64,000 nt of DNA from Candidatus Heimdallarchaeota archaeon (GCA_018238155.1 JABCTZ010000003.1:64001-128000); one strand, 5' to 3'; shown: positions 37,013-48,696, numbered from the stretch's first letter. Notes: generated by a model from the letters alone, not told the origin. Made by a program: numbers and translations.

Positions 37013-37152
37013 GGGCCGTTAGCTCAGCTTGGTAGAGCAATAGGCTCATAAGGCTTGCACTTGCGAGTTCCTGCCTGATGATACCTATTGGTCACTGGTT
37101 CAAGGGATACAAATTGCGATTTGTATCTGAACAAATCCTGTACGGCCCACCA
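37013..37152 (+). tRNA. tRNA with CAU anticodon, probably tRNA-Ile2, with two introns (37051-37082 at 37/38 and 37104-37134 at 58/59) and encoded CCA
   Basis: Spliced form GGGCCGT-TA-GCTC-AGCTTGGTA-GAGC-A-ATAGG-CTCATAA-CCTAT-TGGTC-ACTGG-TTCAAAT-CCTGT-ACGGCCC-ACCA. The GGGCC acceptor and A73 fit archaeal Ile2 better than Met. Confidence 0.93.
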
Positions 37153-37233
37153 TTTTCTTCTTGTTTTGATACAAAATCTGTGTTCTATTTTCATTACTGG
37201 TCGTGTGAGATTGATGGTTGTGTTCCCTTTTTC

Positions 37234-37262
37234 CGCGAATTCAAATCGCGCTGGGCCCACCA
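37234..37262 (+). repeat. tRNA 3'-arm repeat, family 2
   Basis: CGCGAATTCAAATCGCGCTGGGCCCACCA. Confidence 0.75.
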
Positions 37263-37284
37263 AATTCTTACTTTTTATTTTATA

Positions 37285-38361
37285 TCAAGATGTTTCTTTA
37301 ATCCCATCTTTACCGTTTTTATACTTCTTTTCTTCAATGGTAATTTGTTTTTCGAGTTTATTCATTTGTTCAATTGCTAAATTTATATTATCAACTAAAA
37401 CTAATCCATTTGTAAGACACTCTTCAGCACACCATTTCCCTGCAATTATTAAGTAAGGTTTCATAAATTCGGTGATTTTCTTAATCTTTTGGATGTAATT
37501 GTTGATTTGTTTCTTAATTGCATTAAAGATTAATTCTCTACTTTTGTCCCAAATTAATAATGATACAAAAACAATACCTAGGATTATTTTCCATTCATTT
37601 GGTAATGCAGAAACAAAATCATAACCTTTCTTTAGAATATTGACAATTTTATCAATAAACGATATAATAAAAACTAATAATCCCCCAATTATTAATGCTC
37701 CCAATTCAAATGTTAAAATTCCTAATAAGGGGATACTTGTAGCAAGTATTACAAAAGAAGCTGATCCTTGTTGGTAAATACTAACTATTTCACAAGATTC
37801 CTTTGTACCTTTCCATGATTTTACACCATCAAGATCGAGCATATCCTTATCTGTTGTTATTATCGCATGTTTTCCTAATTTCAAGAAAAGAGCTACATAC
37901 TCTACATCTTCTTTATCTCTTTCAGCTATCATAGCTTCTGCTTTTTGATAAGCTACGTCATCATCTAAATTTTGATATGTGATCTTGGTTAAAAATTTGG
38001 AAGCTATAACTTCAATTTCTTTGGTATCTTTATTACAATATTCAGCGATACTTTCAATGTGTTTGTTAATCTCATTTTTTATTTTATCAGGTGCTACACC
38101 TAAAACAAATGGTGATTCAAGTAATTCCAATAGAAACGAATGATTATATTTTACATAGGCTCTAATATGCTTATTTAAAATGCTTGCATCGATAATGATT
38201 TGCAATGATATGTTTTGACCCATTTCCAAAATATTGTCTTCAAAAAAACCTTTGATTTGTTCCATAATACTTAGATCTATGTGTTTTACTATTTCCTTAA
38301 TTATCTCTTTTCTATTGTCAAATTTCTTTCTAATTCGTTCCCAATCCTTTTCGTTAAACAT
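37285..38361 (-). CDS. PIN-domain protein with C-terminal TM helices
   Basis: IIIDASIL, RDKEDVEYVAL and IITTDKDML acidic PIN motifs; hydrophobic C-terminal half. Confidence 0.8.
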   Translation of the reverse strand: MFNEKDWERIRKKFDNRKEIIKEIVKHIDLSIMEQIKGFFEDNILEMGQNISLQIIIDASILNKHIRAYVKYNHSFLLELLESPFVLGVAPDKIKNEINKHIESIAEYCNKDTKEIEVIASKFLTKITYQNLDDDVAYQKAEAMIAERDKEDVEYVALFLKLGKHAIITTDKDMLDLDGVKSWKGTKESCEIVSIYQQGSASFVILATSIPLLGILTFELGALIIGGLLVFIISFIDKIVNILKKGYDFVSALPNEWKIILGIVFVSLLIWDKSRELIFNAIKKQINNYIQKIKKITEFMKPYLIIAGKWCAEECLTNGLVLVDNINLAIEQMNKLEKQITIEEKKYKNGKDGIKETS

Positions 38362-38444
38362 TTTATCTCAAATCCTTTCCCAGTTTTTCTACACATTTCT
38401 AGCATAAAAAACCTTTCGAGATATTACATTCCATAAAATAAGTG

Positions 38445-38478
38445 TTGGTCACTGGTTCAAATCCTGTACAGCCCACCA
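38445..38478 (+). repeat. tRNA 3'-arm repeat, family 1 (33/34 to spliced tRNA)
   Basis: TTGGTCACTGGTTCAAATCCTGTACAGCCCACCA. Confidence 0.95.
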
Positions 38479-38497
38479 CTTCATATTTATGAAGAAA

Positions 38498-38746
38498 CTA
38501 AATATCTGAAATTATTTCTTTAATTTCTGCATGAGAGGGAATTCCCTCAAACTTTATTTCACCATCTACAACAATAGATGGTACTGCTTTAATGTTATAC
38601 TTCTTTGCTAATACAACAGCATCAGCTGATTGATTTAAATTATATTCAATGACCTGACATTTTTCACATATTGCTTCTTTTAGTTGTCTTAATGCTGTTT
38701 GGCAAAGAGAACAACCCGCTGTGAATATCTCAAATTTATGACCCAT
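38498..38746 (-). CDS. Small thioredoxin/glutaredoxin-fold protein
   Basis: CSLC, AKKYNIKAVPSIVVDG and FEGIP. Confidence 0.85.
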   Translation of the reverse strand: MGHKFEIFTAGCSLCQTALRQLKEAICEKCQVIEYNLNQSADAVVLAKKYNIKAVPSIVVDGEIKFEGIPSHAEIKEIISDI

Positions 38747-38847
38747 TAGTGAAAGTCTCCATTATGCTTGGTTACTAAAAGTAACTAAGTTTACATAAGT
38801 ATTTAAATTGGTGGTTTCCAAGTAGAAACAAAGTATTCAGATGGAAA

Positions 38848-39225
38848 GTGATTCCGATTAAAGAGGAAAAAATAATTTGTCCATTATGCAATATTATGAA
38901 TATTGTTAGTAAAAAATGGTCTTTACTTATAGTTAATACAATAGGCAATACTGCAACAATTAGGTTTAGTGAAATAAAGAGAAATCTGCGAACGATAAAT
39001 TCCAAAGTTTTATCTGATAGATTAAAAGAGCTCGTACAAGCAGAGATCATAAACAGGAAATCAAAAGACTCAGTACCACCACATGTTGAATACTCTTTAA
39101 CTGATAAAGGAAAATCATTACGCAAAGCAATAATGCCACTTCTTGATTGGTTTTATTCCTACAATGAGAAAGGAAGAATAACCCCATGCGATATAGCATA
39201 TCAGATTGAAAGGGTTGAGAAATGA
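38848..39225 (+). CDS. HxlR-family winged-helix regulator
   Basis: CP...KKWSLLI, RFSEI, KVLSDRLKEL and VPPHVEYSLT. Confidence 0.92.
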   Translation: MIPIKEEKIICPLCNIMNIVSKKWSLLIVNTIGNTATIRFSEIKRNLRTINSKVLSDRLKELVQAEIINRKSKDSVPPHVEYSLTDKGKSLRKAIMPLLDWFYSYNEKGRITPCDIAYQIERVEK

Positions 39226-39375
39226 AATCACTATCCCTACCCGACGAAAAAAGTATATCATATTTTGGCATGTTGATTTTTCCTAGTAATCATTGAGCAT
39301 TAAATTTCAAAACATTAATAGTATCTTTGTAGATAAAGTCGACTTCATAACTGATCGATTTAAGTAACAATTCTG

Positions 39376-39409
39376 TTGATCACTGCTTCAAATTCTGTAC
39401 GGTCCACCA
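39376..39409 (+). repeat. tRNA 3'-arm repeat, family 1 (30/34)
   Basis: TTGATCACTGCTTCAAATTCTGTACGGTCCACCA. Confidence 0.9.
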
Positions 39410-39421
39410 GTTTTTTCCTTT

Positions 39422-40048
39422 CTAGGTTTTTTGCACAATGTAATCTATTGTGATACTTTGGCATTGTTTCTCATTGTGAACGTAACCAAAGCTTGTTATT
39501 CCTTTGTGAAGTAGTTTTAATCCAGTAAAGAGTTCATCCGCTTCATCAATGTTATAAAAGGAATGAAAAGTATCTTCAAATCCATATTTACCTGCTTTTG
39601 AGATATCTAGCATTTCATTATCGCCAATATCTTTTCCCTCTTTTATGAAAGCTGAATCAGTTGATTGAAAATTAATGTACAGTAAACCACCTTTCTTTAG
39701 CACTCGAAGCATTTCTTTGACCGCTTTTTTAGTACCTGCTTTCGTAAGATGCTCAATCGTGTTATAAGAATATGCGAAACTAAATGACTCATCTTCATAT
39801 GACAATTCTCGTATATCTGCTTTAATTATTTTATAATCAAGGTTATTTTCTTCTGCATATTTTTGTGCTCTCTCTCTCTGAGTATCAGAAATTTCCACTC
39901 CGTGTGCTTCATACCCTCGTTCACCAAAGACTGTTATTTTAGGCTCGGATCCACCAGCACCACAATCCAAAATCCTTTTTTCAAAATCACTTTTTTCTGT
40001 GAATTCCAAAAATCTCTCTATTTCTTGTGGGATAGTAAAAGTAACCAT
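39422..40048 (-). CDS. Class I SAM-dependent methyltransferase
   Basis: ILDCGAGG, ADIREL, SF...YSYNTIEH and RVLKKGG. Confidence 0.9.
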   Translation of the reverse strand: MVTFTIPQEIERFLEFTEKSDFEKRILDCGAGGSEPKITVFGERGYEAHGVEISDTQRERAQKYAEENNLDYKIIKADIRELSYEDESFSFAYSYNTIEHLTKAGTKKAVKEMLRVLKKGGLLYINFQSTDSAFIKEGKDIGDNEMLDISKAGKYGFEDTFHSFYNIDEADELFTGLKLLHKGITSFGYVHNEKQCQSITIDYIVQKT

Positions 40049-40092
40049 AATCCATTATTTAGACTGGTAAATTATTAAATATTTTACAACTC

Positions 40093-40126
40093 TTGAAAAC
40101 TGGTTCAAATCCTGTACGACCCACCA
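40093..40126 (+). repeat. tRNA 3'-arm repeat, family 1 (30/34)
   Basis: TTGAAAACTGGTTCAAATCCTGTACGACCCACCA. Confidence 0.9.
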
Positions 40127-40283
40127 CTTCTTCTATTAATACCGACAAAGATAATCACGTTACAAAAAAAGCAACCGATTTTTTTATATAAAACCTTGAA
40201 ATAGGAAGTTTGTGAATAGTAGCAACTAATTTTTCTCTCTATAATACTGATTATTACAATTCAAACTTCAGAATGCTCTCTGA

Positions 40284-40508
40284 TTACTTAGCTAATTTGA
40301 AAAACTCTTCTTTTGATAATTTGGAATCGTTGATGATTTTTAACAGTAGGCCTTTTCCTAATGTTTCTCCTTTGTGATCTGGAACTACAATTAATCTGCC
40401 GTCTGGGTGTTTTAAAATTACATGACTTCCTTTTCTTCGAGTAACCACAAAACCGATTTTTGTTAAAGTTTTAATAACTTTTGTTGCTGTTAGAGGTTTC
40501 AGTTTCAT
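40284..40508 (-). CDS. hicA: HicA-family toxin
   Basis: L.KIGF...RRKGSHVILKH...VVPDH...LGKGLLLKII. Confidence 0.92.
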   Translation of the reverse strand: MKLKPLTATKVIKTLTKIGFVVTRRKGSHVILKHPDGRLIVVPDHKGETLGKGLLLKIINDSKLSKEEFFKLAK

Positions 40509-40741
40509 TCAATTGGAACCTCTATGAATTGAATGCCTACAAAATCCTTTTGTAAATTTCTTTTGAATTCAGAATCAACAGTTTCCAAATAAAGATCTAC
40601 TGCTTCTTCCATTCTTTGAATTAATTGATTTAGTGATTTTGCTTGTGTATAACAACCTGGCAGTTCTGGTGCAGAAGCAATAAAATAGCCATCTTGATCT
40701 TTTTCGATTAGAATGGTGATTTTCTTCATATCTGTTGTCAT
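40505..40741 (-). CDS. hicB: HicB-family antitoxin (short form)
   Basis: IEKDQDGYFIASAPELPGCYTQA...MEEAVDLYLE; overlaps the hicA start by 4 nt. Confidence 0.9.
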   Translation of the reverse strand: MTTDMKKITILIEKDQDGYFIASAPELPGCYTQAKSLNQLIQRMEEAVDLYLETVDSEFKRNLQKDFVGIQFIEVPIE

Positions 40742-40993
40742 TTCTTTTTTGCTCCTTGATACTATTACCCAAATATAATATATAAATAAGATTATTTCTT
40801 TAGCTAACATTTTTTATCTATTTATGCCTATCTTTACCTAAATGACTTTCAAATTTTTTATGTAGGGTATTTAGAAGAAGTTGGACACTCCTTTCAATCT
40901 TGTTAGCAAATAAAACTGACACTTTCTTTTTCAGATAATGCTGCAAGAGAACTCCCGTCACTTGAGCGCGTGAAGTTTAGTGTTGTTTTCCCT

Positions 40994-41023
40994 TTGGTCA
41001 CTGGTTCAAATCCTGTACACCCA
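40994..41023 (+). repeat. tRNA 3'-arm repeat, family 1 (first 25 nt identical, eroded end)
   Basis: TTGGTCACTGGTTCAAATCCTGTAC-ACCCA. Confidence 0.9.
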
Positions 41024-41501: not shown

Positions 41502-41533
41502 GGTTGACTGCTCAAATCGTACTGGGCAAGCCA
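41502..41533 (+). repeat. Degenerate tRNA 3'-arm repeat, family 2-like
   Basis: GGTTGACTGCTCAAATCGTACTGGGCAAGCCA; sits 24 nt from a minus-strand stop like the other copies. Confidence 0.55.
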
Positions 41534-43467: not shown

Positions 43468-43497
43468 TTGTGTGTTCAAATCGCGCTGGATTCACCA
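43468..43497 (+). repeat. tRNA 3'-arm repeat, family 2
   Basis: TTGTGTGTTCAAATCGCGCTGGATTCACCA; shares TTCAAATCGCGCTGG with 37240-37254. Confidence 0.75.
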
Positions 43498-44249: not shown

Positions 44250-45038
44250 TTAAATTAACTGCACCAGTTGCCCGATTCCTGTTGCAGGTGGAACAAAATA
44301 GATGGTAAAATTATCAGGCACAATTGCTAAAGCAGATAAGTACTCGTAATAGCTTTCAGATAGCTCATATGATTTGAAATTACAAACAAGAATAATTTTC
44401 CTTTTATTGTAAGCGCACTGAATGGCTTTAACAAACTCAATAACCTGTGAACTAGTTTTGCATGCTGATCCTAGCATCAGACCTTGTAAATTTTCATTAG
44501 CTAAAATCTCTACTGCCCTTTCAGGAGAGGAAACTTCACCAAACATTAGAGAAACTTTGAATCCTTCTGATCCTAACCTTTCAGTTAGGAAATTACGCAT
44601 TTTGTTTGTTACCCTAGTGATGAGTTTAGGACTGGGAGGTAATTGCTTCTCTCTATCCTTAGAAGATACAACCCACTTTGGCTCATAAATGAATAACGCT
44701 TGTTTAATGAATTCATTAGGAATATCTTTGAACATTTCAGCACAACGATCTTTTAATAATTGAGCAATTTCATGTAGAGAATGTTCAGAAAATTCTTTGA
44801 ATGTTTCTCCCATCATTATTACATTGAAAGGTAGAGCTTCTGGATGAATTTTCTGAAGAGCAATGATTTCTTTGATTTTCTTATTTGCTGTTTGTAAATC
44901 ATCTTTTATTTCAGGATGACCTATAAGGATTCCAGAGGCATTTGCTTGATAGAGATGCTTACAAGTTATCTTTCCTGTTTGCGCTTCTTCAACAACATCG
45001 AAATTCTGTGCCACAACTTTGAAGATTGCCATAACCAT
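44250..45038 (-). CDS. Circularly permuted triosephosphate-isomerase homologue
   Basis: AQN...TG, IGHPE, YEPKW and GLMLGSA, then RKIILVCNFKSY...FVPP (normally N-terminal) at the C-terminus. Confidence 0.75.
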   Translation of the reverse strand: MVMAIFKVVAQNFDVVEEAQTGKITCKHLYQANASGILIGHPEIKDDLQTANKKIKEIIALQKIHPEALPFNVIMMGETFKEFSEHSLHEIAQLLKDRCAEMFKDIPNEFIKQALFIYEPKWVVSSKDREKQLPPSPKLITRVTNKMRNFLTERLGSEGFKVSLMFGEVSSPERAVEILANENLQGLMLGSACKTSSQVIEFVKAIQCAYNKRKIILVCNFKSYELSESYYEYLSALAIVPDNFTIYFVPPATGIGQLVQLI

Positions 45039-47832: not shown

Positions 47833-48696
47833 ATGAAAATCGGTTTTGGTTTGGAACCTATTCGAGGGTTATCTATGGATCTTATTGTTCGTCTTATGAA
47901 GATGACGCTTATTCAGCACTTTGAATTTAATTGGCGCATAATTCCTAAAGTGCAGTTGGTTATTAAATCGCTGGGAAGGTCAACTACCACTTTTCATTTG
48001 CCAATTTTCAATAGAGATCGATTTGATTTTTCCACAAAAAGTGATACTTTCGAAGTCCAAATGCAAGAAGTGACTTCGTTTATTAATAGAAGAAAAAAGG
48101 ATATCAATATCTCTTATACTCTTGCTCATTTTCCCGAAGATCCTAAGGGTTCATATGATTTAATGTTTAGCCGGCTCGCACAGATAGATACTCCAATTGT
48201 GCTTGAAAATGTTGTCGGACCAACTGACGATGAGTTTTTAGATTTCTATTTGCAAGCCAAGGATTATTTAGGCAGTCATTTAGCAGGTCATTGTTTAGAT
48301 ATTTCCCATCGTTACATCAATAATTGGAAAACTTGGTTAGATCTTCCCAAAGAATTAGAGAAAGATATTGAATATGTTCACATTTCAGATTGCACAAAAA
48401 CGGAGGATTTACATCTTCCCCTTGGTCTTGGAGAAATGCCATTTAACGTTTTTTTTGATTACCTCAAGAAAATTCGATATAATGGTGTCATTATGCAAGA
48501 ATTAAAACCAAATGGCGATCAAGCAGAAGAGATTATGGCCTCTGGTTTACATTGTGCTAAACCATTTAGTAAAATAAAATATTTTCGGATGTTAATTCGA
48601 CGTGCAATTCTTCGTCCAATTTTGCGATACCGCCAAAAAGATTTCGAAGATTTATTGGATAAAACTGCTGAAGAAATAGGTTTTGATTTTGTTTAA
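47833..48696 (+). CDS. Xylose-isomerase/AP-endonuclease-2-like TIM-barrel protein
   Basis: FHLP, VLEN, CLDISH, VHISD, HLPLGLG and QE metal ligands. Confidence 0.85.
   Translation: MKIGFGLEPIRGLSMDLIVRLMKMTLIQHFEFNWRIIPKVQLVIKSLGRSTTTFHLPIFNRDRFDFSTKSDTFEVQMQEVTSFINRRKKDINISYTLAHFPEDPKGSYDLMFSRLAQIDTPIVLENVVGPTDDEFLDFYLQAKDYLGSHLAGHCLDISHRYINNWKTWLDLPKELEKDIEYVHISDCTKTEDLHLPLGLGEMPFNVFFDYLKKIRYNGVIMQELKPNGDQAEEIMASGLHCAKPFSKIKYFRMLIRRAILRPILRYRQKDFEDLLDKTAEEIGFDFV

Follow-up and report, generated by a model that had tools for sequence, protein, structure and literature searches.

As Williams is said to have described in 2002, elements with a tyrosine recombinase integrate in transfer RNA (tRNA) genes, and the T-loop is one sublocation of the crossover. 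Tandem arrays occur at tRNA genes, and integron cassette arrays, built on attC and IntI, have been reported also in Archaea. In this study, we analysed a stretch of 64,000 nucleotides (nt) from a Candidatus Heimdallarchaeota archaeon (GCA_018238155.1 JABCTZ010000003.1:64001-128000; hereafter the window), in which a tRNA(CAU) gene with one intron in the anticodon loop and a second, predicted one in the T-loop (37013..37152, + strand) is followed by an array of gene cassettes bounded by attachment-site (att) copies of tRNA 3' ends. In Thermoproteales, bulge-helix-bulge (BHB) tRNA introns at non-canonical positions transpose between tRNA genes (Sugahara 2008 and Fujishima 2010, as reported in 10.64898/2026.10.13.758758). 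Copying of introns between tRNA types was put at 28% there and at 1.5% in Asgard archaea, with the route of arrival left open (10.64898/2026.10.13.758758). In Caldiarchaeum subterraneum, intron gain in tRNA-Thr(GGU) and scattering of tRNA fragments were tied to an integrating element of 1.8 kb, which has its own recombinase and was proposed to carry the intron in its attachment site attP; the intron was also discussed as a block to integration (Sugahara et al. 2012, PMC3293823). As summarised in PMC3293823, Randau and Soll (2008) put forward the hypothesis that introns, and the splitting of genes, shield tRNA genes against integration.

Like the Thermoproteales introns, the T-loop intron of the window (intron 2) is short, sits at a non-canonical site in the T-arm, combines a central 4-bp helix and a 3-nt bulge with an outer hairpin, and has related copies across tRNA types. 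As in that case, the genome encodes two EndA paralogues (tRNA_int_endo; 211 and 194 amino acids), which, by the published typing of endonucleases and their ranges of tRNA-intron substrates (PMC5829648), is consistent with a broad-specificity alpha-beta heterotetramer. Unlike those introns, however, intron 2 resides in a Heimdall-group Asgard host and pairs with the invariant T-loop, and all three members of its family lie in tRNA types with att-copy fragments. The likeness to Caldiarchaeum consists in a second intron apparently gained in one lineage, with displaced tRNA fragments and mobile DNA adjoining, whereas the array here is without a recombinase, its cassettes of about 1 kb carry cargo only, and the intron seemingly moved alone between tRNA types. 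As with tyrosine-recombinase elements in tRNA genes, direct repeats of the tRNA 3' part bound the insert, relatives have empty sites, and the repeated block starts in the variable loop or at T54. In contrast to such elements, no integrase was found in or near the array, the cassettes are single genes shared between species, and att types of three tRNA(CAU) species are mixed in one array. Arrays of single-gene cassettes that are poor in promoters, each gene being followed by a recombination site, and that are shuffled between genomes are also reminiscent of integrons, but here tRNA 3' ends take the place of attC hairpins, there is no IntI-type integrase next to the array, and the array is anchored on a tRNA gene. 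With regard to the hypothesis of Randau and Soll, an intron here lies inside the att block of a demonstrable landing-site tRNA gene, although the data are mixed: a congener (G008) has the same tRNA with an equally long array and no T-loop intron, and intact att copies remain in the window. The protection idea and the link between intron gain and a mobile element are already published; new are the host group, a self-pairing portable T-loop intron in three tRNA types, and its co-occurrence with integrase-less cassette arrays.

The explanation that we favour for this locus, at a probability of roughly 0.6, combines a portable intron, a late gain and att copies made at the DNA level. A portable T-loop intron would have entered the tRNA(CAU) gene at position 58/59 in this lineage specifically, and small cassettes without an integrase, presumably moved in trans, would have inserted site-specifically and left att copies behind, such that the repeats would preserve the form that the gene, or the att sites of the cassettes themselves, had without the intron. 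The crossover would lie in the T-arm, where the intron-split gene should be a poor recombination partner, and the four intact downstream copies would still be available.

The assembly from which the window comes (G000) is 4.08 Mb in 46 contigs, with 33% G+C and 90.7% completeness. The full Rfam tRNA model matched the gene end to end (RF00005, 42.3 bits) once an insert was allowed in the anticodon loop (34 nt) and another in the T-loop (33 nt); the ARAGORN run missed the gene at 37013-37152. The encoded CCA ends at 37152, and the anticodon CAT makes the product an elongator Met or Ile2 tRNA, of which Ile2 seems plausible from the 83% identity of the first 40 nt to tRNA-Ile(GAT) of the same genome. 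Intron 1, read directly, occupies the canonical 37/38 position (37051..37082, + strand, 32 nt, boundary +/-1) and has homologues of 30-31 nt in four relatives (G007, G010, L069 and L070). The T-arm reads ACTGG (37094-37098), TTCAA (37099-37103), the 31-nt insert (37104..37134, + strand), AT (37135-37136) and CCTGT (37137-37141). By sequence alone the boundary of the insert slides by up to 3 nt, CAA being repeated, and the BHB register sets it at 58/59. The upstream flank of the gene is 81% and 77% identical to those of L069 and L070, the nearest metagenome relatives, which marks the locus as syntenic. The 5' half of the gene is unique within the assembly, and whole-assembly fuzzy scans for an intron-less or second copy, which tolerated up to 4 mismatches in the 19-nt core of the 3' part and up to 5 in the 27-nt 5' half, returned only the gene and the array copies. 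An intron-less paralogue, which an earlier note on the window had raised as a possible source of the repeats, is thus absent from the assembly.

By its predicted structure, the 31-nt insert is a genuine archaeal splicing-type intron with a bulge-helix-bulge in the relaxed HBh' form. Its removal gives a complete cloverleaf with a 7-nt T-loop and the exon junction TTCAA+AT. In the centroid fold, exon nucleotides G53-T-T-C56 pair with GAAC near the end of the insert in a 4-bp helix (GTTC/GAAC), the 3-nt 5' bulge consists of A57, A58 and the first G of the insert (cut between AA and G), and a 10-bp outer hairpin is closed by a UGCG loop; cuts 2 nt into each bulge yield exactly TTCAA+AT. Over the three homologues described below, pairing is kept at 100% in the central helix and in 87% of cells in the hairpin, with one compensatory pair, and two changes in the focal copy convert U-U mismatches of the hairpin to Watson-Crick pairs. 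Removal of the insert from the transcript is predicted splicing.

Intron 2 is a member of a small family of homologous and, to judge from its distribution, portable T-loop introns. One homologue was found at the same site in a tRNA-Val(GAC)-type 3' fragment on another contig of the assembly (C26:46243-46298, - strand), where 24 of 31 intron positions equal those of the focal copy, and a second lies in a complete two-intron tRNA-Val(CAC) gene of G008 (contig C46), matching the C26 copy at 28 of 31 positions. A degenerate pattern search through the class (83 species genomes in the collection) gave these three matches only, and the reversed control pattern gave none; the pattern would miss more diverged members. 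Each member carries GAAC or GGAC complementary to the invariant G53-T-T-C56. Because the intron pairs with the invariant T-loop, its own splice motif can form in any tRNA, and this self-supplied motif fits the presence of the family in three tRNA types. Furthermore, the exon sequence flanking the intron is tRNA-specific on both sides in all three members, which argues that the jumps between tRNA types, at least, moved the intron alone. For the intron-bearing fragment on C26 a 5' half was sought by relaxed-threshold Rfam and acceptor-stem scans and none was found; we treat it as a displaced fragment and not as one part of a split gene.

Among related tRNA(CAU) genes with a readable 3' part, the T-loop intron is absent from six of six (G005, G007, G008, G010, L069 and L070). 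The same tRNA type has no intron in G005 and in G008 (contig C89), G007 has the 37/38 intron only, and so does a paralogous tRNA type in G010; L069 and L070, found by a metagenome scan with the exact 39-nt 5' exon, likewise have only the 37/38 intron. The T-stem 3' strand of L069 and L070 reads CCGGT or CTGGT as compared to CCTGT in the window, and the resulting T51:T63 mismatch is restricted to the focal lineage. Since both the intron and T63 are missing from L069, L070 and the other relatives, both are derived in the focal lineage. T63 is kept in all four downstream copies of the first repeat family, which bears out the earlier observation that the mismatch ties these copies to this tRNA lineage. 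The working gene may owe this mismatch to the att site of a cassette, as the scar of a 3'-end replacement. Apart from these genes, tRNA(CAU) 5' halves followed by the start of a 37/38 intron occur in G008 (C192:22080 onward; L004/L035) and G063 (C42:201 onward; L044), where they run into conserved T/C-rich non-tRNA sequence with no 3' half nearby; these may represent a split or disrupted gene, or a very long intron.

Downstream of the gene, the 19-mer ACTGGTTCAAATCCTGTAC occurs exactly at 38451, 40099 and 41000 and with 2 mismatches at 39382, whereas four matches were seen in 0 of 100 shuffles. The att identity block of the gene itself is divided by intron 2 into a 5' half of 15 nt (TGGTCACTGGTTCAA, positions 44-58, 37089..37103, + strand), which matches att copies 1 and 4 exactly, and a 3' half of 18 nt (positions 59-76, 37135..37152, + strand; repeat families D1/D2). 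The four family-1 copies, all intron-less and on the + strand, are copy 1 (38446..38478, positions 44-76, one mismatch, A68), copy 2 (39377..39409, five mismatches, T63 kept), copy 3 (40099..40126, positions 49-76, one mismatch) and copy 4 (40995..41023), which is the most distal and has a degenerate acceptor/CCA end. ACTGG...CCTGT is kept in three of them, the copy at 39382 having ACTGC...TCTGT, and TTCAAAT is uninterrupted in 4/4; the contrast with the intron-bearing gene, on which the earlier note was built, was thus confirmed by direct reading and by the shuffles. Family 2 is the 3' end of a different tRNA(CAU) type, of which a full gene was seen in G063, and is interleaved with family 1. 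Its members on the + strand are a copy 87 nt past the gene with degenerate partial copies upstream of it (37194..37262, the repeat itself at 37240-37262), a degenerate family-2-like copy (41511..41533) and a further copy (43475..43497). As compared to a G008 copy (L036:14968-15002), the one at 37194-37262 has 32 extra nt between the T-stem 5' strand and the T-loop; these were considered as a second intron and rejected, as they form no hairpin and resemble a further partial att copy. An 18-nt 3' block ending in GGCCCACCA is common to all att types.

The DNA bounded by these direct repeats of the tRNA 3' part is absent from relatives, as expected of insertion at a tRNA att site. The orthologue of window 47833-48696 immediately follows the tRNA in G007, and in L070 no att copy lies within 5.4 kb; G007 and L070 are thus without an array, a single cassette is present in L069, and the array of G008, which does not have the T-loop intron, comprises at least 8 att copies. 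When intron presence was set against array length in this way, as the earlier note had proposed, array length did not track intron presence. The repeats, as we read them, match older intron-less DNA in the form of att-site copies and not spliced RNA. The claim that they match the spliced tRNA therefore holds for the intron-less sequence, and not for its source.

The cassettes in the window encode a PIN-domain protein (37285..38361, - strand; Pfam PIN_2, E 1.7e-10), a thioredoxin-like protein (- strand) with an HxlR regulator (+ strand; 38498..39225, Pfam), an S-adenosylmethionine methyltransferase (39422..40048, - strand, Pfam), and HicA toxin with HicB antitoxin (40284..40810, - strand, Pfam), followed by a zinc-ribbon protein and others, at about 1 kb per cassette. 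The DNA of the methyltransferase cassette is 95% identical to that in G008 (L036:10422-11042) and 87% identical to that in G010 (L031:10784-11440), as against 65-70% for core genes. For the PIN cassette, the identity to a G008 copy, which lies behind a family-2 copy, is 84%. In these other genomes, both cassettes are flanked by other att types. The methyltransferase cassette is also present in three further Heimdall-group assemblies (L074, L076 and L077), in two of them among family-2 repeats, and in an unrelated Logan contig, L090, att copy 3 and the HicAB cassette recur at 95% identity beside another neighbour on the left. These comparisons show on the DNA level that the cassettes are mobile between species, and the methyltransferase cassette in particular indicates recent horizontal movement of a single-gene cassette that seems to lack a recombinase of its own. 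No integrase was found within the inserted elements of the window, the only two Phage_integrase matches in the assembly, both tyrosine recombinases, being on contigs C8 (C8:50428) and C19 (C19:71490), and none on the array contigs of G008 and G010. Exact scans of viral contigs for family-1 and family-2 att sequences, as a sign of free elements, gave no match, and exact-protein look-ups for strain-level variants of the locus (PIN, HxlR, methyltransferase, thioredoxin and upstream open reading frames) gave nothing, or contigs ending before the tRNA.

The junctions of these cassettes bear on the position of the crossover. The distal att copy of L069 has the variable loop GTGTC, of the G008 type, as opposed to TGGTC in its gene, and the reverse is true in G008; these reciprocal foreign variable loops indicate that the incoming element supplies what lies 5' of about position 47. 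Between G008 and G010, right-end homology of the methyltransferase cassette extends up to T54, and the att type is local from position 61 on. The HicAB cassette in L090 keeps its CCTGT att despite the different left neighbour, so T63 seems to travel with the cassette on its right. From these we infer that the crossover falls between about positions 47 and 62, in the T-arm. Intron 2 would then probably lie within the recombination core and split it, as the earlier note had it; the bracket around the intron argues for that claim, and the fact that not all junctions fit argues for caution. A step-by-step history of the array with a single crossover point was attempted and failed, as the flanks of the methyltransferase cassette do not fit.

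A second array helps to order the events. At the end of contig C13 (C13:175531-180797) lies a cassette array with five intron-less Val-type att copies. Its boundaries are 3' ends that belong to an old tRNA-Val(GAC) type, for which the assembly contains no gene; the tRNA-Val(GAC) gene that exists now (C13:164894-165002) differs in acceptor stem and T-arm, and its downstream flank is that of one of the copies. The last 106 nt of C13 overlap the end of C26 perfectly. The copy that follows lies 1.8 kb inside C26, and it is the intron-bearing fragment described above. Under the usual model, which we applied, the most distal copy is the original gene end. Since the most distal copy has the intron and the five nearer ones do not, an intron-bearing gene would once have been the target, with a crossover 5' of position 59. 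By the same rule, the four distal copies in the window are successive former gene ends, and as all are intron-less, the intron is most probably younger than the last insertion of a cassette at the gene itself. More broadly, the balance of evidence favours gain of the intron in the focal lineage after its split from the nearest sampled relatives. Of the three options that the earlier note had offered for the intron-less copies, arrival after the integrations is the one that fits best, given six relatives without the intron and a portable family, and the closing of the hotspot that it attached to this arrival does not follow. Its second option, intron-less donors, may also hold, because the 5' part of the distal copy derives from the incoming element.

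Several observations weigh against the reading that we favour. The 3' bulge of the intron is relaxed, at 5 nt unless G52 pairs with U60, and the motif is thus not a strict hBHBh'. No recombinase is linked to the arrays. The methyltransferase cassette is 95% that of G008 and yet has a different left att type, which a single fixed crossover fails to explain. The join between C13 and C26 rests on a 106-nt end overlap that is also found on a 2-kb contig (C38). The nearest relatives are only 77-81% identical in the flank, so that "recent" spans a long time and the order of intron and integration has to be inferred rather than observed. Finally, the focal intron and the homologue closest to it disagree at 7 of 31 positions, while att copies 1 and 3 differ from the gene at 1 of about 30, and this greater divergence could mean that the intron is older than these copies.

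The last point leads to an alternative that we consider distinctly unlikely, in which the intron predates the present array and integration continued at the intron-bearing gene by crossover 3' of the intron, within positions 59-76. The gene would have kept its intron, and each distal copy would have received the intron-less 5' part of an incoming att site. Such a history would agree with the foreign 5' part of distal copies, with the 3' block common to all att types, and with the divergence of the focal intron, 23% as compared to about 3% for att copies 1 and 3. However, T63 lies 3' of the intron and travels with the right-hand cassette in L090, and the right att of the methyltransferase cassette in G008 and G010 is local from position 61, which together with L090 places the crossover 5' of positions 61-63. 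The intron in the most distal copy of the second array likewise needs a crossover 5' of the intron.

It is a little less likely still that the intron was delivered by a mobile element with an intron-bearing att site, by a crossover 5' of the T-loop which replaced the 3' part of the gene. Although there is a published precedent in the model for Caldiarchaeum tRNA-Thr (PMC3293823), and the homologous intron on C26 is indeed on an att-type fragment and not in a gene, the tRNA-specific exons on both sides in all three family members argue that at least the jumps between types concerned the intron by itself. For the PIN cassette next to the gene, an intron-less counterpart in G008 adjoins a gene that likewise has no intron, and the viral contigs yielded no free element with an att site of this kind. 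Two patterns in the distribution of fragments are nevertheless in line with delivery. In G000, extra 3' fragments are found for about 5-6 tRNA types, and T-loop introns for the two types with most of them, in counts which are small and post hoc; and the intron-bearing tRNA-Val(CAC) gene of G008 has two intron-less 3' fragments elsewhere. Contig-end overlaps between that gene and its fragments were sought, and none were found.

Far less probable is a view in which the insert is a scar that inactivates the gene, and a functional tRNA sits in an unassembled part of the genome. The incompleteness of the assembly (90.7%), the non-canonical 3' bulge, and the finding of two tRNAs with a CAT anticodon (the initiator at C7:363895 and the focal gene) where three are expected would allow it, but a scar would hardly restore a 7-nt T-loop exactly on removal, recur as a homologous insert in a complete tRNA-Val(CAC) gene of another species, or acquire two changes that make Watson-Crick pairs from hairpin U-U mismatches, and the gene is at a syntenic locus. 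The third option of the earlier note, reverse transcription of the mature, spliced tRNA into copies that were then inserted, can practically be set aside, because, even though the copies lack the intron and end in CCA, the check for a reverse transcriptase gave no RVT_1 match in the 90.7%-complete assembly while control genomes gave matches, CCA is encoded in the focal gene and in those of relatives, the copies are 3' fragments starting at position 44, 49 or 54 of which none spans the 37/38 junction, the same array architecture surrounds intron-free genes, the same cassettes lie between other att types in other genomes, and the preprint on Asgard tRNA introns found no signature of reverse transcription for intron gains (10.64898/2026.10.13.758758).

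Returning to the late gain of a portable intron, the question is whether it protects the gene. With its att block split into 15 and 18 nt, the gene should no longer support a crossover in the T-arm. A crossover between the gene and the family-2 site 87 nt away would be expected to give a chimeric, non-functional tRNA, and no second copy was detected. To call the hotspot closed, as the earlier note did, is an overstatement: four intact att copies lie downstream, at least 8 copies make up the array of G008, where the intron is absent, and the second array ends in a copy that bears it. A portable T-loop intron might thus act as a lock on the att site, retained or spread specifically at the landing-pad tRNA genes of T-arm-recombining cassette arrays where it guards against dead chimeras; this is a tentative idea, and in our view more probably wrong than right. 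If this were true, the intron-protection hypothesis would gain its first demonstration by natural comparison, and tRNA introns in Asgard archaea would have a concrete route of spread.

The protection proposal has been open since 2008, with very few concrete loci for testing it. The main value of the present locus is as a well-defined system for such tests: it offers matched natural substrates, with the same tRNA with and without the T-loop intron, intact and split att sites adjoining, and cassettes that occur across species, and the second array, with the intron in a displaced copy, adds to this natural test case. The three family members also constitute a clear case of one intron family in three tRNA types of Asgard archaea, where the census saw almost no such copying. 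If the T51:T63 mismatch is indeed an integration scar, integration can degrade a tRNA gene, which is the cost that the protection idea assumes.

Other tRNA genes of the assembly show traces of the same kind. At least one displaced 3'-end copy is present 2-25 kb downstream of Ala, Pro and Lys tRNA genes (C43:128-13302, C11:65383-90414, C39:8704-21576 and C19:11521-14158), which suggests that integration at tRNA genes is common in this genome. ARAGORN finds 25 tRNAs in the assembly, a count which implies that many tRNA genes are heavily interrupted or unassembled. A further contig from another assembly, L091 (L091:3560-3878; GCA_018238085.1 JABCUA010000170.1), is near-identical but departs from the window 33 nt ahead of the tRNA start and continues as unrelated coding sequence of higher G+C content; it is either a chimeric assembly or another arrangement at this locus, and is uninformative on strain-level variants. 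Lastly, in an open reading frame at 44250-45038 (- strand) of the window, the Pfam triosephosphate isomerase model matches from profile position 55 at protein residue 6.

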